From Candidatus Anaeroferrophillus wilburensis (GTDB taxonomy: Bacteria; Desulfobacterota; Anaeroferrophillalia; Anaeroferrophillales; Anaeroferrophillaceae): 64,000 nucleotides of DNA. Where the stretch lies: contig JAFGSY010000039.1 of NCBI GenBank assembly GCA_016934315.1, positions 24,454 to 88,453 of the forward strand, read 5' to 3'. Positions within the stretch are counted from its first letter, which is position 1. The number at the start of each line of letters is the position of its first letter. Under the pieces are notes generated by a model. The model was not told where the DNA came from. It searched no databases and was given only the letters and a program-made list of their open reading frames with translations. Positions 6,213 to 21,563 of the stretch are shown one piece after another. The position numbers and the translations under genes are program-made.

Positions 6213-7250
6213 ATGGATGTTGACCTTTTTTCCTATGACCTGCCACCAGGGCATATCGCCCAGCATCCTCTGCCGTCCCGCGATCAGTCCCGGATGCTGG
6301 TTCTCGGTCGTCAGCAGGAGGATGTTCATGACAGCCGGTTTTGCCAACTTGCTTCATGGCTGGAGGCTGGAGATCTTTTGGTCTACAATGATACCAGGGT
6401 GCTGCCAGCTCGCTTGCTGGGCCGCAAAATGACCGGTGGGCAAGTGGAAGTCTTTCTGCTTGACTATCAGCATGGCAGCCCCACCGAGGAAGTCTGGCAA
6501 TGTCTGTACAAGTCCTCCAAATCAGTTCGTTTGGGGCAGGAGATTTGTTTTGGTGAGGAGATGCGCGGGCGTGTTGTGGCTCCTTCGACTGCCAACCCAG
6601 GGGCTATCACGCTGCTGACGGATCAGGACAGGACAGTTCGGAAGGTTATTAATGCCATCGGCAAGGTACCTTTGCCTCCCTATATCAAACGAGATCCCGG
6701 GGATGATGATCGACACCGCTATCAGACTATTTTTGCCGAGGTGGGCAAGCAGGGAGCCGTTGCTGCTCCCACGGCAGGACTTCATTTTACGCCGGAGCTG
6801 CTCGCCAGCCTGAAGGCGGCCGGAGTCCTGTTTGCCCCGCTGACGCTCCATGTGGGGCTGGGTACCTTTTCACCGGTGAAAGCTGCCGTGGTGGAAGATC
6901 ACCAGATTCACCGGGAGTTGTTCGAGATTTCCACCACTACTCTGGAGCGCATTGCCGAAACAAAAAGCAAGGGCAAACGGGTCATAGCCATCGGCACCAC
7001 GGTTACCAGGGCGCTTGAGTATCAAGCCAGAACCGGCCACCAGCAAGGCTGGTGTGATCTGTTCATCTATCCAGGCTATATCTTTCAGGTCATTGATGGT
7101 TTAATTACCAATTTTCACCTTCCCCGTTCTACTTTGCTGATGCTGGTAGCCGCCTATGCCGGCCGCCAGCGCATGCTAGCAGCATACCGTCACGCGGTCA
7201 GGGAGGGATACCGTTTTTACAGCTATGGCGACGGAATGCTGATACTCTGA
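6213..7250 (+). CDS. queA: S-adenosylmethionine:tRNA ribosyltransferase-isomerase.
   Basis: Translation from the ATG at 6213 begins [31 protein letters not shown], the conserved QueA N-terminus. The ORF-track start at 6069 adds a non-conserved extension. ~346 aa. Confidence 0.9.
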
Positions 7251-8380
7251 TGAATTGTTTTTCTCTGACTGCCAATGATCAGGGCAGTGCCGCCCGTTTG
7301 GGACGATTGCGCACGGAGCATGGGGTTATTGAAACGCCTTGTTTTATGCCGGTGGGAACCAGGGCGACCGTTAAAGGGATAACTCCTTTGCAGCTGAAGG
7401 AGGAGATCGGTGCCCAGATCATTCTTGCCAATACCTACCATCTGTTTTTGCGTCCCGGCCATCAGCTGATTGCCGATCTTGGTGGGCTGCATTCATTTAT
7501 GGGGTGGGACGGGCCAATCCTCACCGACAGCGGTGGTTTCCAGGTGTTCAGCCTTTCATCCCTGCGTACGCTTGAAGAGCAGGGGGTGACGTTCCGCTCC
7601 CCGGTGGATGGCAGTCGGCATCTCCTGACTCCTGAACGGGCAATTGAGGTGCAGGAGGCCCTGGGTGCCGACATTATTATGGCCTTTGATGAATGCACCC
7701 CCTATCCGGTGGATTTTAAACGGGCCAGGGAATCTCTCCAGCTGACCGCCCGCTGGGCCCGGCGCTCCAAGGCAGCTCGCCGGCGGTCTGACAATCTGCT
7801 TTTTGGCATTGTTCAGGGGAGTATGTTTGAAGAGCTGCGTCGTGAAAGTGCGGATCTGACCCTGGAGGTTGATTTTGACGGCTATGCTGTCGGGGGGCTC
7901 AGTGTTGGCGAGGAGAAAGCCCTGATGCTGGACATGATCCGGGTGACGTCTCCCATGCTGCCGCCTGATCGTCCCCGCTATCTTATGGGCGTGGGCAAGC
8001 CGGAAGACCTGGTACAGGCGGTGGCGGCCGGCATCGATATGTTCGACTGCGTCCTGCCCACCAGAAACGCCCGTAATGGCATGTACTTTACCTGGCAGGG
8101 GCCGCTAAGTATTAAACAAGCACGTTATAAGGCGGATGCGTTGCCCGTTGACGAGCAGTGTTCCTGTTATGTCTGCCGCAACTTTTCACGTGCTTATCTG
8201 CGTCATCTGTTCATGGCATCTGAAATTCTGTCATCAGTACTGGCAACGATCCATAATCTTTATTTTTATCATCAATTGATGGCAAAGATCAGAGATCATC
8301 TCCAGGCCGGAACATTTACCGCGTTCATGGACGGCGTCCTGCCACTGTTGCTGTCCGGGGCCGGCGAGCGAAAAGCATAA
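7250..8380 (+). CDS. tgt: Queuine tRNA-ribosyltransferase.
   Basis: Hallmark motifs ([20 protein letters not shown], zinc site CxCxxC...H: [17 protein letters not shown]). Start overlaps the queA stop (TGATG). Confidence 0.92.
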
Positions 8381-8431
8381 CGCAATCAAGCATTAGTGAT
8401 TATTTATTAACATTAAGTAAGGAGAGATCGT

Positions 8432-8764
8432 ATGTTAGGAGTAGCATTTGCCATGGCACAGAATCCTGCCGGGGGTGGACCGGCCGGTGGTCTTGAAGGA
8501 TTAAAGGCTTTTTTCCCCCTTATCCTCATGTTCGCGATTTTTTATTTTCTGCTCATCCGACCGCAGCAGAAAAAGCAGAAGGAACATAAAAACATGCTGG
8601 CCAATCTCAAACGGGGAGATGAGATTGTGACTGCCGGTGGCTTAATGGGCAAGGTTACCGCCATCAGCGATCGGGTGGTTACGATAGAAGTGGCGGATAA
8701 AATCCGAGTGCGGATTCTCCGCAGTCAGGTAATGACCATTGTTCAGGGTGATCTGTCATCATAA
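8432..8764 (+). CDS. yajC: Preprotein translocase subunit YajC.
   Basis: 110 aa with a single TM, then the motif LKRGDEIVTAGGLMGKV. Canonical tgt-yajC-secD-secF synteny. Confidence 0.9.
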   Translation: MLGVAFAMAQNPAGGGPAGGLEGLKAFFPLILMFAIFYFLLIRPQQKKQKEHKNMLANLKRGDEIVTAGGLMGKVTAISDRVVTIEVADKIRVRILRSQVMTIVQGDLSS

Positions 8765-8797
8765 CCGTTACGCGTTTGCTGCAGGAGTTATCCGATT

Positions 8798-10390
8798 ATG
8801 ATTAAAAGTGTTAAGCTTCGCCTGCTGATTATCCTGGCCACCATTATCCTGGCAGGGGTTTACCTGATGCCGTCGGTGGTGTCCGACCTGCCTGACTGGT
8901 GGGGGAAGGTGCTGCCAACTGATAAGATCCATTTGGGTTTGGACCTTCAGGGTGGCATTCATCTGCTGATGGAGGTTGATGTTGAAAAAGCCCTCTCTGC
9001 TTCAACCGACCGGGTAGCCGGAGAAATGCAGCGCCTGCTGCGTGATAAAAAGATTGATTTTGAGCAGGTGAAGCAAGTTGATGCCGGAACGTTGTCCATT
9101 GTTCTTACCCATGCTGGGGATAGTTCGGTGATAAAAGATCTGCTGGGGAATGAAATGCCTCAATGGCAGATGATGTCTGCGGAGGAGCAGGTGGTCAGTT
9201 ATCGGGTTTCCAGTGATGAGCGCCGGCGGATTGAAAAGCTTGCCATTGACCAGGCCGTGGAAACCATGCGCAACCGCATCGATCAGTTCGGCGTTTCCGA
9301 GCCGGAAATCAGACCCCAGGCAGACAACCGGATTTTGGTGCAGTTGCCCGGCATCAAGGATACCAGGCGGGCCATTGATCTGATCGGTAAAACGGCACTG
9401 CTTGAGTTCAAGCTGGTGAGTGAATCGTTTGATCCCCGGAACCTGGAATCAGGTACTCTGCCTGATCACCTTGAGGTCTTGTACCAGCAGGAATATGATC
9501 CGGTGACCAAGAAAGTGGTCCGTCAGGTTCCTTTTGTGCTGGAGAAGGAGTCCCTGATGACCGGCGAATATATTGCCGATGCCAAGGTTCGCTTCAACTC
9601 CCAGTTCGGCGAACCCTATGTGGCGATGGACTTTAACTCCCAGGGGGCGAAGCTGTTTGATCGGATTACGGCTGAGAACGTTAAACGGCGGCTGGCGATT
9701 ATCCTCGATAATCATGTTTATTCTGCCCCGGTCATCCAGGAGCGGATTGCCGGTGGCAAGGCTCAGATCAGCGGCCGTTTTTCCGCCAAGGAAGCACGCG
9801 ACCTGGCCATCGTGCTGCGGGCCGGGGCCTTGCCGGCACCCATCAGAATTCTTGAAAAAAGAGCGGTGGGTCCCTCTTTGGGCCATGATTCGATCCGTAA
9901 GGGCCTGATATCCATGGTTGTTGGTGGTCTCCTGGTAGTTCTGTTCATGTTTGCCTTTTACCGTCTCAGCGGTTTGGTTGCCAACCTCGCGCTGGTACTC
10001 AATATGCTCTTCATTCTGAGCATTTTAGCATTGGCCAAGGCCACCCTGACCCTGCCGGGTATCGCCGGCATTGTTCTGACCATCGGTATGGCCGTTGATG
10101 CCAATGTCCTGATTTTTGAACGGATCAAGGAGGAACTGCGGCTGGGCAAGACCCCCCGGGCTGCCCTTGACAGCGGCTACGGCAAGGCATTTTTGACCAT
10201 TATGGATGCCAATATAACGACCTTGATTGCCGCCATTGTCCTCTATCAGTATGGTACCGGCCCCATCAAGGGGTTTGCCGTTACCTTGTCCGTCGGGATT
10301 ATTTCCAGCTTGTTTACCGCCATTTTTGTTACCCGGCTGGTGTATGATTTTATTCAGGAGCGGAAAGCCCTGAAACGGTTAAGTATTTAA
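8798..10390 (+). CDS. secD: Protein translocase subunit SecD.
   Basis: 530 aa with a large periplasmic domain and C-terminal 6-TM bundle. Motifs LGLDLQGG and TLPGIAGIVLTIGMAVDANVLIFERIKEE. Confidence 0.92.
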   Translation: MIKSVKLRLLIILATIILAGVYLMPSVVSDLPDWWGKVLPTDKIHLGLDLQGGIHLLMEVDVEKALSASTDRVAGEMQRLLRDKKIDFEQVKQVDAGTLSIVLTHAGDSSVIKDLLGNEMPQWQMMSAEEQVVSYRVSSDERRRIEKLAIDQAVETMRNRIDQFGVSEPEIRPQADNRILVQLPGIKDTRRAIDLIGKTALLEFKLVSESFDPRNLESGTLPDHLEVLYQQEYDPVTKKVVRQVPFVLEKESLMTGEYIADAKVRFNSQFGEPYVAMDFNSQGAKLFDRITAENVKRRLAIILDNHVYSAPVIQERIAGGKAQISGRFSAKEARDLAIVLRAGALPAPIRILEKRAVGPSLGHDSIRKGLISMVVGGLLVVLFMFAFYRLSGLVANLALVLNMLFILSILALAKATLTLPGIAGIVLTIGMAVDANVLIFERIKEELRLGKTPRAALDSGYGKAFLTIMDANITTLIAAIVLYQYGTGPIKGFAVTLSVGIISSLFTAIFVTRLVYDFIQERKALKRLSI

Positions 10391-15703: not shown

Positions 15704-16492
15704 TCACTGTTGCCGCTGCCAGCGATTCCCGGGCGGCACCATCTTCGATGAAGAGTTAGTTCCTTTCTGCAGGAGGATTTCTCCCCGACAGACTGGCTCC
15801 ACAAGTTCCCTCTTGTAGAGATGGACAAGGGAGAGTGATGCTTTGGTCGCCAGTCGGAGCAGTTCACCATCGCTGATGGCTCCACCGATGTTCCATGACC
15901 AGTTGGTTACCTCATCGGCAAATCCGGCAGGCAGATCACCAACCAGGAGCAGATCATGAATCAGGAGATGGCCTCCCGGGACGAGCAGGCTGGCGATATC
16001 ATGGAAAAACGATGCTTTGTCAACGATAATATTGAAGGAGCCGTTCATAGAGATCAGATCAATGAAAGCGTGATGGTAGGGAAGGTGGCTGAAATCGGCA
16101 TGAACCAGCTGGATGGTGGTGGCAAGCTGCAGCAGCTCCCGGGCACGCCTGGCCAGGCTGAGCAGCTCCCAGCTCAGATCAAGGCCGAGAAGAGCGGGGT
16201 TCAGCTGGCGATCCCCAGCCAGGATGCAGAGGTCAAGCCCGCTGCCGCAGCCCAGGTCAAAAACAACGGATGGCTGCAGATTCCTGATGACCGGCAGGGG
16301 GTTGCCGCAGGGGAAACTGGTTCCGATCTGAAAATCAGGCAGGGGCTGGAGGTCTTCGGTGGCATAACCGAGTTCTTCTAAAAGGGCTATGCCGCGGGCC
16401 GGGCTGACCCCTCCCAGCAAACCGAGGGGCTGGCGGGCGGCGGCATCATACATCTGGCGTAGTGATTGGCGCAGTTTGAGCTTGAAATCCAT
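15704..16492 (-). CDS. Class I SAM-dependent methyltransferase (Methyltransf_11/31-like, ArsM/UbiE-like fold).
   Basis: SAM-binding motif VFDLGCGSGLDL and the downstream acidic loop. 262 aa. Divergent from the ParB-like operon. Confidence 0.65.
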   Translation of the reverse strand: MDFKLKLRQSLRQMYDAAARQPLGLLGGVSPARGIALLEELGYATEDLQPLPDFQIGTSFPCGNPLPVIRNLQPSVVFDLGCGSGLDLCILAGDRQLNPALLGLDLSWELLSLARRARELLQLATTIQLVHADFSHLPYHHAFIDLISMNGSFNIIVDKASFFHDIASLLVPGGHLLIHDLLLVGDLPAGFADEVTNWSWNIGGAISDGELLRLATKASLSLVHLYKRELVEPVCRGEILLQKGTNSSSKMVPPGNRWQRQQ

Positions 16493-16565
16493 TGGAAACG
16501 GCTTGTACTCGGTGTATGGCTGTGATATAGCCCCTGAAGATTAGCATGGTATATCAGCAGACTGT

Positions 16566-16587
16566 GCAGCCTGCAGGCTGCTATAAT
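16566..16587 (+). promoter_or_regulatory. Perfect 16-bp palindrome (GCAGCCTGCAGGCTGC) immediately followed by a consensus TATAAT hexamer. Putative operator overlapping the promoter of the ParB-like/rSAM/nucleosidase operon.
   Basis: Palindrome at 16566-16581 and TATAAT at 16582-16587, about 50 bp upstream of the 16637 start. The -35 region (AGACTG at 16559-16564) is weak. Confidence 0.4.
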
Positions 16588-16636
16588 CCGCAATGACCAC
16601 CAACAATCCCCGTGCGAACAACGTTGATGCCGTTAT

Positions 16637-17590
16637 ATGGTTTTTTCTTTCCCGAAACAAGAGCTAATTTCCTGTACTCTCTCCGACTTGGATTTTACTG
16701 ATCGCCGGTTCCCTTTTTCCTATGGGCCGTTGCCGGAAACGTTTCTTACTTCCGTTGAACAGATCGGCATTGCGGTGCCGCCCCTCTTGATCCATGGGCC
16801 GCGTGGACATGTCATTGTTTGTGGCCGGCGACGTCTGGAGGCAGCCTCGGCTGTTTTTCCGCCGGCGCAAACGATCGAAGCCAGAATGGTTGAGGCTGAT
16901 GATGAACAACGCCTGTTTTCCCTGGCCTTGTGGGATAATCTCGCTCATCGTTCCTTCAACCTGGTGGAGACTGCCGACATTGTCTGGCGCCTGGAAGAGC
17001 TGTACGATGAGCCGACGATCAGGGCTGATTTCCTGCCCCATCTTGGTGTTCCTTCCAAACGACGGTATCTGGAACGTTATCGCGCCATTGTCCAGCTGTC
17101 ACCCACCATCAGGCTACTGCTGGCCCGGGGGGCGATGGATGGGGAGACGGTTGACATCATAAAGAGCTGGCCGGCGGAAGATCATGAACTGCTGATGACG
17201 GTGGCCCATGAGTTGGTTCTGAACCGCAATAAATTGCGTCAGACGGTCCAGAATGTGGATGACCTTGCCCGTCGGGACGGCAAAAAACCCGCACAGGTGA
17301 TCCATGAGGTTGCCAACTCTCTGCCCGAAGGTTGCCATTCGGCTGCAGATTTCCGCCAGCAGCTGCAGGTCAGGCTGTTTCCCTGTCTCAGTGCGCAGGA
17401 AAACCGTTTCCGGGAGTTCTGCTCATCTCTGCAGCTGCCCCGCCATGTCCACTTGGTCGCGCCGCCCAATTTTGAGGGTGACGAATATACCCTGGAGATC
17501 CGTTTTCGTTCGCCAGCGGAGTGGAGATCTGCTTGTAAGTGGGTGTCAAATCTTGAGGGTAACAGGCTTGATGAGCTTTTTAATGACTGA
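16637..17590 (+). CDS. ParB/Srx-like N-terminal domain protein with a C-terminal region of unknown function.
   Basis: 317 aa. Residues ~40-120 carry ParB box motifs (PPLLIHGPRGHVIVCGRRRLEAA resembles the GERRxRAA motif of ParB N-terminal domains). C-terminal 190 aa unrecognised. Confidence 0.55.
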   Translation: MVFSFPKQELISCTLSDLDFTDRRFPFSYGPLPETFLTSVEQIGIAVPPLLIHGPRGHVIVCGRRRLEAASAVFPPAQTIEARMVEADDEQRLFSLALWDNLAHRSFNLVETADIVWRLEELYDEPTIRADFLPHLGVPSKRRYLERYRAIVQLSPTIRLLLARGAMDGETVDIIKSWPAEDHELLMTVAHELVLNRNKLRQTVQNVDDLARRDGKKPAQVIHEVANSLPEGCHSAADFRQQLQVRLFPCLSAQENRFREFCSSLQLPRHVHLVAPPNFEGDEYTLEIRFRSPAEWRSACKWVSNLEGNRLDELFND

Positions 17591-17593
17591 TGG

Positions 17594-17626
17594 CTTCGTA
17601 ACAATGATACCTTCTTTGTTGCGAAG
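17594..17626 (+). other. Stable intercistronic stem-loop (11-bp stem with one G-U pair) between the ParB-like gene and the radical SAM gene.
   Basis: CTTCGTAACAA-(11 nt)-TTGTTGCGAAG. No downstream U-run, so it looks more like a processing or attenuation element than an intrinsic terminator. Confidence 0.3.
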
Positions 17627-17697
17627 CGTCCTTTCAGGGTTGTACTGGATGGTTGCCGGTTTTTTACGGCGTTTTGCCCGTTGCTACGAGTCCATCA

Positions 17698-18807
17698 ATG
17701 ACTAAAAGCATGTTTCAGCCGACCCGGGTGCTGGTGGAGCAGGATGCCTTTTCCTACCCTTACACGGAAGAAATTCTCCAGCGGCTGCCAGCCGCGGAGG
17801 TCGTTACCATCGGCCATCCTGACCAGGAGTTGTTCCATGAACTGGACTTTTCGCCGGCCAAAACCCTGCTGTTGATGGTTCACCGGGGTAAATTTTTCAA
17901 ACCCTGTCCGGGGACGGCAGAGAACTACCGCTGCTGTCTTTACCAGATCCTCCATCTTGGCTTGGGCTGCAGCATCGGCTGCAGTTATTGTGTTTTGCAG
18001 GGGTATCTGAATAACCCCTTCATTACCCAGTTCGTCAATCTTGACGATGCTCTGCGTGAGCTTGATGAGGTGTTCAGCAGCCACCCTGACTCTTTTTTCC
18101 GCATCGGCACCGGTGAGTTCACCGATAGCCTGTTCATGGACCCCCTGACCCGGTTGTCGGCAAAGCTGGTACCCTATTTCGCCCGGCAGACACACGCCGT
18201 GCTGGAGTTGAAAACCAAAAGTGTAGCGGTGGACAACCTGTTGCAGCTTGAAGGGGAGGTTGGCGAAACGATCGTTTCCTGGAGTCTGAATGCACCGTCG
18301 GTGGTTGCCCGGGAGGAGCTGGGGGCGCCATCGCTTAAACAGCGACTGGCAGCCGCTGCCCGCTGCCGGCAGCGTGGGTATCGCATCGGTCTGCACTTCG
18401 ATCCGCTGGTATTTTTTCCTGGCTGGCAGCAGGAGTATCGTGAAACGGTACGGTTGATCTTTGATTATCTTGCTCCTGATGATATTATCTGGATCTCACT
18501 GGGGGCGTTTCGTTATCTGCCGCCGATGAAAGAGGCGATCAAAGAGCAGCACCCCGAGAGTAGCATTATCTATCAGGAATTTGTCCGTGGACTGGATGGT
18601 AAAATGCGTTACTTCTCCGGTATTCGCCGTGCCATGTATCGCCATCTGGTGGCCGAAATCAGGCAGCATGCCCCCGATGTGTTTCTCTATTTCTGCATGG
18701 AACATGAACGGCTCTGGCTGGATGTCTTCGGCTATGCGCCGACTGACAACCAGCAGCTCTCTCTCTGGCTTGACCGGTGCTGCCATCGCTATCCGGCACA
18801 AAAATAA
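17698..18807 (+). CDS. Radical SAM enzyme of the spore-photoproduct-lyase (SplB/COG1533) family.
   Basis: CxxxCxxC in GLGCSIGCSYCVLQGYLNNPFITQFVNLDDALREL aligns with B. subtilis SplB (ATGCMGHCHYCYLQTTMGSKPYIRTYVNVEEILDQ, recalled from memory). Further similarity along the length. Start ambiguous (TTG 17653, ATG 17698 or 17710). Confidence 0.75.
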   Translation: MTKSMFQPTRVLVEQDAFSYPYTEEILQRLPAAEVVTIGHPDQELFHELDFSPAKTLLLMVHRGKFFKPCPGTAENYRCCLYQILHLGLGCSIGCSYCVLQGYLNNPFITQFVNLDDALRELDEVFSSHPDSFFRIGTGEFTDSLFMDPLTRLSAKLVPYFARQTHAVLELKTKSVAVDNLLQLEGEVGETIVSWSLNAPSVVAREELGAPSLKQRLAAAARCRQRGYRIGLHFDPLVFFPGWQQEYRETVRLIFDYLAPDDIIWISLGAFRYLPPMKEAIKEQHPESSIIYQEFVRGLDGKMRYFSGIRRAMYRHLVAEIRQHAPDVFLYFCMEHERLWLDVFGYAPTDNQQLSLWLDRCCHRYPAQK

Positions 18808-18826
18808 CAACTCCGCTACTGGAAGG

Positions 18827-19513
18827 ATGATGATTGGCATTATCACTGCTTTTCGCCATGAACTTGCACCGCTGCTGGCTGCCCAGCCGTGGCGGCAGGA
18901 ATCTTATGACGGACGATCTTTTTACCGCCGTCAGTTACAAGGCTGCGGGGTGGTTGCCACCTCATCCGGACTAGGAAAGGTGATGGCCGCTTCCACCTCG
19001 CAACTGATGATCAGCCGTTTTCAGCCGCTTATACTGATCAATGTCGGTTCCTGTGGCGGGGTTGCCCCGCATCTGAAGATTGGCGACCAGGTTTTGGCCT
19101 CGTCGGTTGTTGAATATGATTTTGCCAGCCTGCATAAAGATGTTCCCCGCCTGCAGTGTGCGCCGTCGCTTGTTGAAATGCTGGCTGACCGGGTTGCCGG
19201 ACTCCATGTGGGCCCGGTGGCTTCGGCCGACCAAAATGCTGATACACCAGCAAAAAGGGCCTGGCTTCATGAACAGTTTCAGGCGTTGGCAGCTGATTGG
19301 GAGGGGGCGGCGGTGGTTCGGGTTGCCCGGCGCAATGGATTGCCGGCGCTGGTATTACGCGGTGTTACTGATGTGGGTTCGGATGAGCTGGAAAAGGAGT
19401 TCAGTGCCCATGTGGATGAGGTCTTGCCGTTGCTGGCCGATACCATGGAAGTGATGCTTGAGGTGCTGGCTGAGTTGATCCGCACCGGCGTCATTCCACG
19501 TAGCGAGGCTTAA
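18827..19513 (+). CDS. Purine nucleosidase of the MTA/SAH nucleosidase (Pfs/MtnN/MqnB) family.
   Basis: Aligns with E. coli Pfs through SGLGKVMAAS...LILINVGSCGGVAPHLKIGDQVLAS...VVRVAR...LRGVTD. Start moved to the ATG at 18827/18830 after GGAAGG. The longer track ORF from 18581 overlaps the upstream gene. Confidence 0.75.
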   Translation: MMIGIITAFRHELAPLLAAQPWRQESYDGRSFYRRQLQGCGVVATSSGLGKVMAASTSQLMISRFQPLILINVGSCGGVAPHLKIGDQVLASSVVEYDFASLHKDVPRLQCAPSLVEMLADRVAGLHVGPVASADQNADTPAKRAWLHEQFQALAADWEGAAVVRVARRNGLPALVLRGVTDVGSDELEKEFSAHVDEVLPLLADTMEVMLEVLAELIRTGVIPRSEA

Positions 19514-19516
19514 ACA

Positions 19517-20878
19517 ATGGCCGTCAAGCATTTCAATCCGCCGCAGCTTATTGTCATCAGTTTTATGGTGGCAATTATCTTCGGCAGCATGGTGCTCATG
19601 CTGCCGGCAGCGGTGAACGGACCGCCTTTGAGGTTTATTGATGCCCTCTTCACCTCAGCGTCGGCAGTGTGTGTCACCGGACTGGTGGTGGTTGATACCG
19701 GCACCCGGTTTACTCTGTTTGGTCAGTTGACGATTCTCGCCCTGATTCAGCTGGGCGGGCTGGGGATTATGACGTTTTCGGTGGTTTTTGTTCTGCTGCT
19801 GGGGCGCAAGCTGGCATTCCGGGAGAAGCTGCTGATCAGCGATGCCTTTTCTCACCTGCCCGTCAATGATATCCGCTACCTGGTGAGACAGATACTGCTT
19901 TTTACGGTTGCCATTGAGGGGTGTGGGGCGGTCATCCTTTTCTGCTGCTGGCTGCCTGATTTTTCCTGGCCCCATGCCGGCTACCTGGCTGTTTTCCATG
20001 CGATTTCAGCCTTTTGCAATGCCGGCTTTTCCCTTTTCAGTGACAGTCTGACAAGCTATCGCCATGATATTTTTGTCAACCTGACGGTCATGGTACTGAT
20101 TATCGCCGGCGGCCTGGGATTTCTGGTGATCATGGAAATCCCCTATGTTGTCCGTCAGCGGCTGCGGCATCAACGGGTGCGGCTGACCCTGCACAGCAAG
20201 CTGGTTCTGCTGGTGACAGTGCTCCTGATTGTTGGTGGAACATGCTTGCTTTTTCTCACTGAACAGGTGCATACCCTGAGTGAACTATCGCCGGGCAGGG
20301 GACTGCTGGCGGCAGCTTTTCAGGCGGTCAGTGCCCGCACTGCCGGCTTCAACACTCTGGATATCGGCTCTTTTGGCAATCCTTCCCTGTTGATCGTCAT
20401 CCTCTTGATGTTTGTCGGTGCTTCTCCGGGCTCCTGCGGCGGTGGAGTCAAGACAACAGCTTTCGGGGTTTTCCTGCTGATGTGCTGGAGCCGCTTTGCC
20501 GGTCGGGATACGGTCAACCTTTTTGGCCGTACTTTTCCCCCGAGCACGATTGTTGACGCGTTGACCATTATTATTACCGCCTCGCTTGTGCTGATAGTAT
20601 TTCTGTTGGCATTATCGATTTCAGAGGCTCAGCTGCATCTGCCTTTGGCGGTTGAGCATGGTCGTTTTCTCCATCTACTTTTTGAAGAGGTGTCGGCTTT
20701 TGCCACTGTGGGACTTTCAACTGGCGTGACCCCGACCCTGACCGACCCGGGAAAATTCCTGCTTGTGCTGTTGATGTTTACCGGCCGGGTGGGACCTTTG
20801 ACCGCCGTTCTGGTATGGGCCCGCCGCCGTCCCCATGGCAGGTATCAGTATGCCGAAGAACAGGTAATGATCGGCTGA
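19517..20878 (+). CDS. Trk/Ktr-type potassium transporter membrane subunit (TrkH/KtrB family).
   Basis: 453 aa, about 8-10 TM. Four M-P-M selectivity repeats with GLGIMT/GFNT-like motifs typical of TrkH/KtrB. Confidence 0.85.
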   Translation: MAVKHFNPPQLIVISFMVAIIFGSMVLMLPAAVNGPPLRFIDALFTSASAVCVTGLVVVDTGTRFTLFGQLTILALIQLGGLGIMTFSVVFVLLLGRKLAFREKLLISDAFSHLPVNDIRYLVRQILLFTVAIEGCGAVILFCCWLPDFSWPHAGYLAVFHAISAFCNAGFSLFSDSLTSYRHDIFVNLTVMVLIIAGGLGFLVIMEIPYVVRQRLRHQRVRLTLHSKLVLLVTVLLIVGGTCLLFLTEQVHTLSELSPGRGLLAAAFQAVSARTAGFNTLDIGSFGNPSLLIVILLMFVGASPGSCGGGVKTTAFGVFLLMCWSRFAGRDTVNLFGRTFPPSTIVDALTIIITASLVLIVFLLALSISEAQLHLPLAVEHGRFLHLLFEEVSAFATVGLSTGVTPTLTDPGKFLLVLLMFTGRVGPLTAVLVWARRRPHGRYQYAEEQVMIG

Positions 20879-20900
20879 TTGATCGGCTGGAGGTTTTTCC

Positions 20901-21563
20901 ATGAGACTGTTTGTGGTTATCGGTTTGGGCAGTTTTGGCTATTATGCCGCAAAACGGCTTTATGCTCTGGGGCAGGAGGTGATGGTTATTGACCATGACA
21001 AAGAACTGGTCCAGAGCATCAAGGATCAGGTTTCCCGGGCGGTGGTGGCAGATGCCACGGACCGGGAAAGTCTTGAACGGCTCGGACTTGCTGATGTTGA
21101 CGTGGCCCTGGTCAGTGTTGGTGACCGGCTTGATACCAGTATCCTGATTACCCTGTATCTCAAGGAGATGGGGGTGAAGGAGGTGGTGGTGAAGGCGGTT
21201 ACCGATGACCATGGTAAAATACTTGAGAAGATCGGCGCCAGCATGGTGATTTTCCCTGAGCGTGATTCCGGGGTACGGCTGGCAGATCGCCTCGGTTCGG
21301 AGAACGTCATTGAGCATTTGCCCCTCAGTGAGGGCTACGGCATCATGGAGATGGCGGCGGATAAAGGCATCATTGGTCAAACACTACGGACCCTCAAGCT
21401 GAGAAACCGCTACGGCATCCAGGTTATTGCCATCAAGGAGATGGTGCCCGAGCGGATGCACTTTCCCCCTGATCCTGATTTTGTTATTAAAGACAGTGAT
21501 ATGCTTATTGTCGTCGGTCCGGACGAGGGGCTTGAAGCTCTGAAGAGAAAACCGCTCATATAA
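20901..21563 (+). CDS. Trk/Ktr K+ uptake regulatory subunit (TrkA-N NAD-binding plus TrkA-C; KtrA-like).
   Basis: Rossmann motif VIGLGSFGYYAAKRL and a C-terminal RCK_C domain. 220 aa. Adjacent to the TrkH-family gene. Confidence 0.85.
   Translation: MRLFVVIGLGSFGYYAAKRLYALGQEVMVIDHDKELVQSIKDQVSRAVVADATDRESLERLGLADVDVALVSVGDRLDTSILITLYLKEMGVKEVVVKAVTDDHGKILEKIGASMVIFPERDSGVRLADRLGSENVIEHLPLSEGYGIMEMAADKGIIGQTLRTLKLRNRYGIQVIAIKEMVPERMHFPPDPDFVIKDSDMLIVVGPDEGLEALKRKPLI

Follow-up and report, generated by a model that had tools for sequence, protein, structure and literature searches.

Gene organization of the locus

The 64-kb stretch of DNA analyzed here (the window), which comes from an anaerobic bacterium of sediments, carries three consecutive open reading frames on the + strand: a gene for a ParB-like protein of 317 aa (16637..17590; hereafter the partner), a gene for a radical SAM (rSAM) enzyme of the spore photoproduct lyase (SPL) family of 369 aa (17698..18807), and a gene for a nucleosidase of the MTA/SAH/5'-deoxyadenosine (5'-dAdo) type of 228 aa (PNP_UDP_1; 18827..19513). 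The gap between the first two is 107 nt long and the one between the last two 19 nt. An earlier note on this DNA had proposed this layout, with a shared orientation and gaps of about 107 and 19 nt, and its coordinates are borne out by the positions of the open reading frames and by the public annotation of GCA_016938755.1 (JAFGTY010000076.1), in which the gene calls are identical. Its family assignments also stand: the first product has the ParB fold, the second is a radical SAM enzyme of the Pfam family SPL, and the third is a nucleosidase resembling MTAN.

Right after the stop codon of the ParB-like gene, and inside the 107-nt gap, an inverted repeat on the + strand forms a stable hairpin with 15-nt arms and a 5-nt loop (17593..17627). 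The RNA fold of the region 17585-17700 has an energy of -40.8 kcal/mol (z -3.5). There is no U-tract at the hairpin, and a scan of the gap for consensus terminators gave a single weak terminator-like site at 17644-17660. The hairpin may be an intra-operon stabilizer or attenuator. In the relatives of the locus, the gap between the ParB-like and SPL-like genes is mostly of 0-45 nt, against 107 nt and a hairpin here. The clade of the window's close relatives keeps the whole gene order NadB-ParB-like-SPL-MTAN-DegT-PhoH-YbeY. The comparison across related loci also showed that two further features, the divergent methyltransferase and the palindrome upstream, are confined to the window's lineage. 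A search of viral contigs gave zero matches, and PADLOC gave none for either the ParB-like protein or the SPL-like enzyme. Hence, nothing suggests a mobile or defense origin of the pair.

Conservation of the gene pair

The three genes had been described in the earlier note as a candidate module in one operon. Among 73 related loci for which the downstream neighbor was counted, the nucleosidase gene follows the SPL-like gene in just four, all of them close relatives with long housekeeping synteny, and it is absent from two loci of this same clade (L005 and L009). The family of the protein was correctly named: it matches PF01048 with 126.5 bits and aligns over its full length with the MTAN of Vibrio and E. 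coli, keeping the equivalents of Glu12, Glu174, and Asp197, with a Trp at the equivalent of Met173. With NF004079 (MTA/SAH nucleosidase) it scores 126 bits, below the equivalog cut-off of 169, and its weaker NCBIfam matches include futalosine hydrolase and HpnG. It was its role as a dedicated third component that did not survive the comparison. One may still read the trio as a single pathway, in which the nucleosidase would be a dedicated scavenger of 5'-dAdo, or would remove adenine from an adenosylated product of the rSAM enzyme, in the manner of HpnH/HpnG and MqnE/MqnB. The short distance between the rSAM stop codon and the nucleosidase start, which becomes a 4-nt overlap in L002, and the matches to futalosine hydrolase and HpnG would fit this. 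Such pairs require a co-conservation that four of 73 loci, all from one clade, do not provide, and the best matches and catalytic residues are those of an ordinary MTA/SAH nucleosidase, so that we regard a dedicated pathway of the three genes as highly improbable. Judging from its sequence and neighbors, the nucleosidase is most likely a housekeeping MTAN that is co-transcribed here and lies outside the conserved module. Its clearing of 5'-deoxyadenosine may help the rSAM enzyme without being specific to the module.

The conserved unit is the ParB-like/SPL-like pair, and not the trio. The pairing proposed in the earlier note holds whether one starts from the SPL-like or from the ParB-like gene, and it spans several phyla. 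We counted neighbors at the 78 SPL-like loci whose upstream DNA extends over 1 kb or more; in 22 of them, the gene immediately upstream is ParB-like and has the same orientation. Judging from the titles of their records, the lineages concerned include Thermodesulfobacteriota (with Syntrophobacteraceae and Desulfoferrobacter), candidate division KSB1, Deferribacteres, and Ca. Tharpella, and the pair is present in the cultured Desulfoferrobacter suflitae DRH4. A GT2 glycosyltransferase is found immediately upstream in 42 of the 78 loci, and the upstream gene is neither GT2 nor ParB-like in 17. Since many SPL-like loci have a GT2 gene or neither gene upstream, the enzyme does not require an adjacent ParB-like partner. 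In the reverse direction, a profile of the ParB-like family retrieved 37 metagenome loci, and the SPL-like gene lies immediately downstream in 25 of them, i.e., in all 25 that have enough downstream DNA; in the remaining 12 the DNA ends at most 266 nt past the ParB-like gene. An additional GT2-ParB_N-SPL locus was reached independently, starting from a GT2 query. In Desulfobulbales, ssb comes after the SPL-like gene. Both families are large: the SPL-like clade has at least 582 confirmed matches in a species-level genome collection, with non-sporulating anaerobes as hosts, and the ParB-type partner family comprises at least 1555 clusters at 50% identity.

The radical SAM enzyme

The rSAM enzyme of the window is a member of the SPL family. 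It matches the Pfam SPL family (PF20903) with 101.1 bits, against a gathering threshold of 27, over residues 6-297, which confirms the placement made earlier. In a Foldseek search, the solved SP lyase structures were its nearest matches by far (TM 0.72-0.78, E 3e-18), the next match having an E value of 1.6e-5. It scores 51.4 bits with TIGR03886, the SPL-family clade of non-sporulators, below the equivalog cut-off of 437.55. With the SplB equivalog TIGR04070 it scores 115.5 bits, below the cut-off of 400, and we therefore rejected its identification as a SplB orthologue.

To analyze the residues of the active site, we counted their conservation over 102 unique SPL-like relatives and aligned the enzyme with the SP lyase of Geobacillus thermodenitrificans in the PDB (4rh0, S76C) twice, by phmmer and with a profile, taking the roles of the Geobacillus residues from PMC3467042. 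The cluster motif C91-x3-C95-x2-C98 is aligned with that of SplB, as had been claimed, and is invariant, as are C70, Y97, R272, K302, R304, Y305, and R310. Where the Geobacillus enzyme reads EAA(C)TSD, the aligned motif is TGEFTD, so that Glu140, also invariant, occupies the position of Cys141 in Bacillus subtilis (Bs) and Cys140 in G. thermodenitrificans (Gt). The earlier note was thus right that a cysteine is lacking at this position. A candidate for the H-atom donor cysteine is nevertheless present, since in both alignments C70 falls on Geobacillus Ser76, the residue changed in 4rh0, and this is the position of the donor cysteine in the SP lyases of Clostridium (PMC3467042). The presence of this Clostridium-type cysteine weakens the argument drawn from a missing donor. 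Only one of the two tyrosines sought in the mapping on SplB has an equivalent: Bs Tyr97 (Gt Tyr96) corresponds to Y97, and the position of Gt Tyr98 is Val99 here and Ile or Val in all 102 relatives.

The lesion-contacting residues of SP lyase have equivalents in part. Arg273, which contacts the lesion phosphate, corresponds to R272 in both alignments. Among the contacts of the 5'-dihydrothymine, Arg193 is replaced by Ser or Ala at position 194, Glu268 by Ser267 or by an insertion, and Tyr339 lies outside the aligned region. The hairpin region G298-x-D-G-K302-x-R304-Y305 is conserved, with equivalences that differ between alignments (R304, Y305, and R310 in one, K302 with Lys309 in the other) and with low confidence of the AF2 model across residues 272-305. 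In SP lyase, Lys309 is a second contact of the lesion phosphate, and Arg304 and Tyr305 form the tip of the hairpin. Four conserved cysteines, C79, C80, C223, and C333, are specific to the clade. With Arg193 and Glu268 absent and Cys140 replaced by an invariant Glu, the chemistry could differ from simple lyase repair.

The enzyme thus resembles SplB (Bacillus, Clostridium; G. thermodenitrificans 4FHC and 4RH0) in its Pfam family, its fold, its CxxxCxxC motif, the tyrosine and arginine just mentioned, a cysteine at the Clostridium donor position, and a hairpin that bears basic and aromatic residues, with equivalences that vary between the alignments. It differs by a sequence identity of only 23-24%, by the exchange of Cys140 and Tyr98 and the loss of Arg193 and Glu268, and by a 6-residue insert with a Cys-Cys pair, in addition to C223 and C333. 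Its hosts are non-sporulating anaerobes, and its gene is paired with a ParB-like or GT2 gene, whereas we know of no such pairing for SplB.

The ParB-like partner

The partner has a ParB-N domain at about residues 8-105, with an arginine patch at G63-R-R-R66, followed by a helical region resembling the ParB HTH (about 106-205) and by a C-terminal domain specific to the family (about 210-317), in which P249, F279, E280, and F290 are invariant. Among 52 partner proteins, G63, R66, and E111 are invariant. The ParB-type N-terminal domain had been recognized in the earlier note, which called the rest an unrecognizable C-terminal region of 190 aa. This description was too broad: the alignment with H. 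pylori Spo0J continues past the N-terminal domain to about residue 202, and relatives of the partner give weak HTH_ParB matches. It is the last 110 residues or so that lack a Pfam match and form the family-specific domain. The protein of the window is itself without any Pfam match, and some of its relatives pass PF02195. Its best structural matches are true proteins with a ParB-N and a helical domain, over 160 aligned residues. At the level of the fold, the partner belongs to the ParB superfamily, having the ParB-N/Srx fold with a GxxR patch. In two loci (L050 and L083), the gene beside the SPL-like one codes for just the C-terminal half of the partner, without the ParB-N domain, which suggests that this half is the constant interacting part.

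Compared with the CTP-switch proteins (chromosomal ParB/Spo0J, Noc, KorB, and PadC), the partner shares the ParB-N fold, box I (S39, G44, P48), the G-x-[KR]-R patch, and a box III-like [DE]-N...E motif, followed by the helical region that aligns with Spo0J. It differs by its score with TIGR00180 (ParB/RepB/Spo0J), which at 21.2 bits is below the cut-off of 58.45, and by its GERR motif, in which the Glu is replaced by Tyr, Phe, Arg, or His in the 52 partners, with G-x-[KR]-R and [DE]-N kept. Because this Glu is absent, NTP hydrolysis by the partner is uncertain. In addition, a novel C-terminal domain replaces the dimerization domain of ParB, and the neighboring gene is that of the rSAM enzyme, at every metagenome locus with enough downstream DNA. 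No ParA-type family occurs among the annotated neighbors at loci for which a gene table exists, and no repeated parS-like palindrome was found, nor one conserved upstream of the ParB-like gene among 18 relatives. For these reasons, and given a C-terminal domain unlike known ones, we rejected the identification of the partner as a ParB partition protein.

Comparison with DNA modification and repair systems

DpdB is the ParB-like protein of a DNA-modification system. The 7-deazaguanine system DpdA-DpdB and phosphorothioation, where DndB is a ParB-superfamily protein (PMC10853773), resemble the pair in that such a protein is encoded alongside a DNA-modifying enzyme. They differ in that Dnd proteins are lacking in the window, the pair does not lie in an island or defense locus, and the enzyme is a radical SAM protein of a lyase family. 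No TGT-like DpdA paralogue occurs in the window or beside the ParB-like gene, and the Dpd system was rejected for this reason. The only TGT of the window (7250-8380) is the canonical tRNA enzyme (PF01702, 542 bits) and adjoins QueA, in agreement with the earlier statement that there is no second tgt paralogue. Comparative genomics has placed other SplB-like rSAM proteins with DUF4130 and UDG, or with ImuB-C (PMC3765255). These are also SPL-related rSAM proteins in DNA-repair neighborhoods of non-sporulating bacteria, but with other partners, and ParB is not mentioned there. In the literature searched, the ParB-like/SPL-family pairing, i.e., a ParB-type DNA-binding protein and an SP-lyase-related rSAM enzyme as a conserved two-gene unit, is not described.

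Proposed function and alternative explanations

The placement of the enzyme in the SPL family and its conserved, reciprocal pairing with a ParB-like protein in several phyla favor a DNA-directed activity, which is the most economical reading of the pair and the one that the earlier note had suggested. More specifically, we propose that the SPL-like enzyme would be a DNA-directed radical lyase whose lesion differs from the spore photoproduct or extends beyond it, and that a DNA-binding ParB-like protein dedicated to it would recruit or position it, a proposal that we consider to have about an even chance of being right.

The main alternative within DNA-directed activities is modification instead of repair. 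In this view, a normal pyrimidine would be turned into a radical by the SPL-like enzyme, perhaps at the C5-methyl of thymine, and then functionalized, with Glu140 as the base, the GT2 enzyme glycosylating the product where present, and the ParB-like protein picking the sites. This would be an oxygen-independent route to hydroxymethyl-uracil or to a base-J-like mark. The frequent GT2 gene upstream argues for it: the gene belongs to one orthogroup, with 40-56% identity between lineages, forms GT2-ParB-SPL triads in seven loci (L003, L014, L015, L106, L117, L118, and L126), and overlaps the SPL gene by 4 nt in L001. The invariant Glu in place of the Bacillus-type donor cysteine, the loss of the residues recognizing dihydrothymine, and the occurrence of ParB-like proteins in modification systems, such as DndB, point the same way. 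However, the invariant Clostridium-type cysteine fits the return of an H atom and thus repair. The GT2 orthogroup stands alone in three of four sampled distant members and once beside a GH57 glucan enzyme, and L003 is flanked by GH57 genes, so that GT2 may belong to carbohydrate metabolism; it has no homologue in the 64-kb window. The setting is one of housekeeping genes with stable synteny, there is no restriction partner, and the pair is not in viruses. On balance, modification seems unlikely. Its most far-reaching form, in which the pair and GT2 would in many lineages constitute a pathway by which strict anaerobes hypermodify their DNA without oxygen, comparable to base J but bacterial and anaerobic, with a ParB-like clamp targeting chromosomal sites, is a distinctly improbable one.

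Two other explanations would change the role of the partner. It might be a mere transcription regulator of the rSAM gene (a KorB-like repressor or clamp), with no part in the action of the enzyme. We find this doubtful, because the regions upstream of the ParB-like gene share no conserved palindrome among 18 relatives, the usual gap of 0-45 nt suggests stoichiometric co-expression, and the reverse co-occurrence is strict (25/25). A large and highly conserved family-specific C-terminal domain, together with variants reduced to the C-terminal half, would also be unexpected for a simple repressor. Finally, the substrate might not be DNA: the ParB/Srx-fold protein would be an NTP-dependent enzyme acting on small molecules or proteins, in the manner of SerK, SbnI, or sulfiredoxin, and a metabolite, RNA, or glycan would be the target of the rSAM enzyme. 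The GT2 and GH57 neighbors would fit this explanation, which is nevertheless quite improbable, given that the closest structures to the partner are true ParB-N proteins with a helical domain, that its similarity to Spo0J and, in its relatives, to HTH_ParB extends beyond the N-terminal domain, and that the rSAM enzyme retains the equivalent of Arg273 of SP lyase and has a basic/aromatic hairpin. DNA is also the substrate of the sole characterized members of this rSAM family.

For the DNA-directed lyase that we favor, the following mechanism can be proposed. The partner is a ParB/Noc-type protein, made of a ParB-N domain that is a putative nucleotide switch, a ParB-like helical region that probably binds DNA, and the family-specific C-terminal domain. 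It would bind DNA, possibly as an NTP-gated clamp, and its C-terminal half would recruit or position the lyase. The latter would flip out a damaged dinucleotide, with R272 as the arginine holding the phosphate between the two flipped-out nucleotides; the enzyme also keeps the SAM cluster, one relay tyrosine, and a basic/aromatic hairpin. The 5'-dAdo radical would then abstract an H atom, the carbon-carbon cross-link between the adjacent bases would break, and C70 would return the H atom. The classical spore photoproduct is probably not the lesion, or not the only one, because the residues reading the 5'-dihydrothymine are replaced and the hosts are non-sporulating strict anaerobes. A reasonable candidate would be a methylene-bridged intrastrand cross-link, produced by radical damage under anoxic conditions.

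Significance

SP lyase is, to our knowledge, the only characterized radical SAM enzyme of DNA repair, and it is tied to spores. The clade described here keeps the core that handles the dinucleotide, changes the residues that read the base, and has its own ParB-type partner in many lineages. Cultured carriers make the pair testable, namely D. suflitae DRH4 and, for GT2-SPL, Desulfobulbus elongatus DSM 2908 and D. rhabdoformis DSM 8777. If our proposal is true, anoxic habitats would come within the range of direct, radical-based reversal of DNA damage, and the enzyme would draw attention to lesions arising in the absence of oxygen. The pair would also be the first case in which a radical SAM enzyme of repair or modification is served by a DNA clamp of the ParB type.

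Association of ParB-like and SPL-like genes

The window encodes, on the forward strand, a ParB-like protein (16637-17590, 317 aa), a radical SAM enzyme of the spore photoproduct lyase (SPL) family (17698-18807, 369 aa), and a nucleosidase (MTAN; 18827-19513, 228 aa), with gaps of 107 nt and 19 nt. These three co-oriented ORFs are exactly as described in the earlier note, and identical gene calls are present in the public annotation of contig JAFGTY010000076.1 (GCA_016938755.1, a Candidatus Anaeroferrophillus MAG). The note had also proposed that the three genes form one module, which our census refutes: 4 of 73 loci have the nucleosidase gene after the SPL-like gene. They all belong to the close clade of the window, with the order NadB-ParB-like-SPL-MTAN-DegT-PhoH-YbeY, and two loci of that same clade (L005 and L009) are devoid of it. 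We thus rejected the trio as a unit. The nucleosidase aligns over its full length with ordinary MTA/SAH nucleosidases, with the catalytic acidic residues in place.

To study the neighbors of the SPL-like gene, we used 80 genome loci retrieved with an SPL-like profile and three loci from contig look-ups, and searched for partner genes using tblastn. In 78 loci, the DNA extends for at least 1 kb upstream of the SPL-like gene; of these, 19 have only a ParB-like gene directly upstream, 39 have only a GT2 glycosyltransferase gene there, three have both in the order GT2-ParB-SPL, and 17 have neither. Judging by their record titles, the ParB-bearing lineages include Thermodesulfobacteriota (Syntrophobacteraceae, Desulfoferrobacter, Desulfofervidaceae), candidate division KSB1, Deferribacteres, and Ca. 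Tharpella. For the reverse test, a ParB-like alignment was used as a profile against metagenome contigs and gave 37 loci. An SPL-like gene is directly downstream of the ParB-like gene in 25 of these; in the other 12, the DNA ends at most 266 nt past the ParB-like gene. One more GT2-ParB_N-SPL locus was reached starting from a GT2 homologue. This supports the idea that the ParB-like and SPL-like genes are a dedicated pair.

The GT2 is a soluble, TuaG-like protein of a single orthogroup. Its gene directly precedes the SPL-like gene in around half of the loci, including L001, where the two genes overlap by 4 nt, and Desulfobulbales loci (L013-L078). Across all loci, we found seven GT2-ParB-SPL triads (L003, L014, L015, L106, L117, L118, and L126). 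Yet, the link of the GT2 to the SPL-like gene is not obligate, since only one of four distant orthologues used in a reverse test is in such a triad and the other three are alone, with a GH57 gene beside one of the lone copies (L124) and GH57 genes also flanking the L003 triad.

In the L126 triad, a Lactamase_B gene (8008-9192, metallo-beta-lactamase fold) overlaps the end of the SPL-like gene. In around 20 Desulfobulbales loci (e.g., L021, L039, and L055, at 9.1-10.6 kb), ssb comes next after the SPL-like gene on the same strand, with a DnaJ/CbpA-like gene behind it. The Desulfobulbales loci also have a divergent RNase G gene upstream of the GT2 gene. In three Electrothrix-related loci (L034, L048, and L080, at ~5.5-8 kb), the SPL-like gene is directly preceded by QueD, QueE, and a UDP-sugar dehydrogenase-like gene, and the window has QueE-QueC at ~5 kb and QueA-Tgt at ~10 kb upstream. 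The proximity of Que genes is probably a coincidental housekeeping synteny.

Surroundings of the genes in the window

The genes flanking the three ORFs are housekeeping. Upstream are QueA-Tgt, SecD-SecF, QueE-QueC, a gene of the inositol-monophosphatase family, NadB, and a divergent ArsM-like methyltransferase, and downstream are TrkH, TrkA, a DegT-type aminotransferase, PhoH, YbeY, and HcyBio. Relative to the synteny of the relatives, these include two lineage-specific insertions: the ArsM-like SAM methyltransferase (15704-16492, reverse strand), which scores best in NCBIfam with arsenite methyltransferase selenoprotein families, though far below each cut-off, and TrkH/TrkA (19517-21563, forward strand). 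As both are missing from the syntenic loci of relatives, we excluded them as components of the system, including the methyltransferase that the note had singled out as adjacent. The palindromic operator that it had proposed fared no better. The perfect 16-bp palindrome GCAGCCTGCAGGCTGC (16566-16581), located 55 nt before the ParB-like gene, is the sole perfect copy within the window, and no conserved palindrome was found upstream of the ParB-like genes across 18 relatives, on which grounds we rejected it as a conserved operator or parS.

A hairpin with 15-nt arms (17593-17627, forward strand) lies directly after the stop codon of the ParB-like gene, in the 107-nt gap. The RNA fold of 17585-17700 is stable (z -3.5), the hairpin lacks a U-tract, and a consensus scan of the gap found one weak terminator-like site and no other. 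Since the gap between the two genes is 0-45 nt in most loci, the hairpin appears to be a lineage-specific intra-operon element. Nothing speaks against the predicted co-transcription of the ParB-like and SPL-like genes in the window.

The ParB-like protein

The ParB-like protein of the window has no Pfam match and a weak TIGR00180 match. Helicobacter pylori Spo0J aligned with it over residues 27-202, across the N-terminal domain and the stretch after it. Sulfiredoxin, SbnI, and serine kinase are lower-ranked matches. Its relatives match PF02195 and, weakly, PF17762 (HTH_ParB). Among 52 unique ParB-like partners, G63, R66, and E111 are invariant, 50 have Lys or Arg at position 65, and 43 have N101. 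At the Glu position of the canonical GERR motif, they have Tyr, Phe, Arg, or His instead.

The last ~110 residues have no match to a known domain. They comprise two helices, a beta-hairpin, and two further helices, and the C-terminal region has four invariant residues (P249, F279, E280, and F290). In two loci, the partner upstream of the SPL-like gene consists of the C-terminal half only (~172-175 aa, profile positions 163-320), and no ParB-N domain was detected in either locus: L050 (7508-8035), from a Desulfofervidaceae MAG, and L083 (2084-2602), from a Syntrophobacter MAG. An exhaustive profile search at E <= 1e-30 recovered at least 1555 cluster representatives of the family. The first 150 are all single proteins of ~245-356 aa in which the match spans most of the sequence or all of it, and none is a fusion protein.

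The SPL-family radical SAM enzyme

The assignment of the radical SAM enzyme to the SPL family, made in the earlier note, is confirmed by a Pfam SPL score of 101 bits (cut-off 27). The scores for TIGR04070 (SplB) and TIGR03886, another curated clade of the family, are 115.5 and 51.4 bits against cut-offs of 400 and 437.55. Hence, the enzyme is a member of Pfam SPL and neither a SplB nor a TIGR03886 equivalog. Its sole PDB match is the SP lyase of Geobacillus thermodenitrificans (E 1e-21 for the sequence alone, 3e-38 for a profile of 25 sequences). The AF2 model (mean pLDDT 82, low confidence at residues 272-305) matches this structure with a TM of 0.72-0.78, and the next match, MgmA, is far weaker.

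We mapped the residue roles known in the G. thermodenitrificans enzyme from its structure (PMC3467042). The cluster cysteines are retained (C91, C95, and C98), as is Tyr96 (Y97). The position of Cys140 (Cys141 in Bacillus subtilis) is occupied by Glu140, which confirms the absence of the SplB cysteine suspected in the note. A candidate donor cysteine is nevertheless not lacking: C70 aligns with Ser76 of SP lyase, the position of the donor cysteine in Clostridium SP lyases (PMC3467042) and the site of the S76C substitution in structure 4RH0 (C140A/S76C). Tyr98 is replaced by Val99. In SP lyase, Arg193 and Glu268 form hydrogen bonds with the 5'-dihydrothymine (PMC3467042), and neither has an equivalent here (Ser194 and Ser267). 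Of the two residues that bind the phosphate (PMC3467042), Arg273 is matched by R272. The hairpin region has invariant K302, R304, Y305, and R310, but which of them are equivalent to Lys309, Arg304, and Tyr305 of SP lyase differs between two alignments.

Among 102 unique relatives from the fetched loci, C70, Y97, E140, R272, and these four hairpin residues are invariant, whereas position 99 is occupied by Ile or Val and position 194 by Ala or Ser in every sequence. A further set of conserved cysteines is particular to the clade: C79 (100/102), C80, C223 (95/102), and C333, of which C79 and C80 form a Cys-Cys pair within a 6-residue insert relative to SP lyase. These could ligate an auxiliary cluster, bind a metal, or act as a thiol relay. 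Judging from the sequences, the enzyme would retain the SAM chemistry of SP lyase, a plausible cysteine for hydrogen return, and the grip on the dinucleotide phosphate, and it differs in the base-reading residues and in one relay tyrosine.

A putative DNA-directed radical lyase

We found no description of ParB paired with SPL, SplB, or radical SAM enzymes in the literature searched. The other SplB-like contexts listed in one comparative-genomics study are with DUF4130 and UDG, or with ImuB-C (PMC3765255), and ParB is absent from that account. Public annotations call the radical SAM enzyme "DNA photolyase" or "SPL family radical SAM protein", and the ParB-like protein "ParB/RepB/Spo0J family partition protein" or "hypothetical protein". 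The SPL family was already known, as was the concept of a ParB-superfamily protein assisting a DNA enzyme; the ParB-SPL pairing, the C-terminal domain of the partner, and the altered active site are new with respect to the literature searched.

The central idea of the earlier note, a DNA-directed unit of ParB plus SPL, is supported by the conservation of the pair in both directions. In such a unit, a ParB/Noc-type protein, with its C-terminal half as the constant feature, would bind DNA and recruit or position a radical lyase, the SPL-family enzyme, which would hold a flipped-out dinucleotide. It is less likely that the ParB-like protein is purely a regulator, or that the substrate of the SPL-like enzyme is not DNA. 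We rejected a phage or defense origin of the pair: a scan of viral contigs gave no match for the module, and PADLOC gave none for either protein, which makes it unlike a defense or mobile system. The alternative that we keep alive is that the SPL-like enzyme modifies DNA instead of repairing it. The recurrent GT2 neighbor, the Glu that invariably takes the place of Cys140, and the additional cysteines of the clade would fit such an activity, although the GT2-SPL link is not obligate.

If the pair acts in repair, as a DNA-directed radical lyase, its lesion likely differs from, or extends beyond, the classical spore photoproduct, given the altered recognition residues and the fact that the hosts are non-sporulating strict anaerobes. 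By analogy with established SP-lyase chemistry, a methylene-bridged intrastrand cross-link arising from oxygen-free radical damage would be a chemically sensible candidate.
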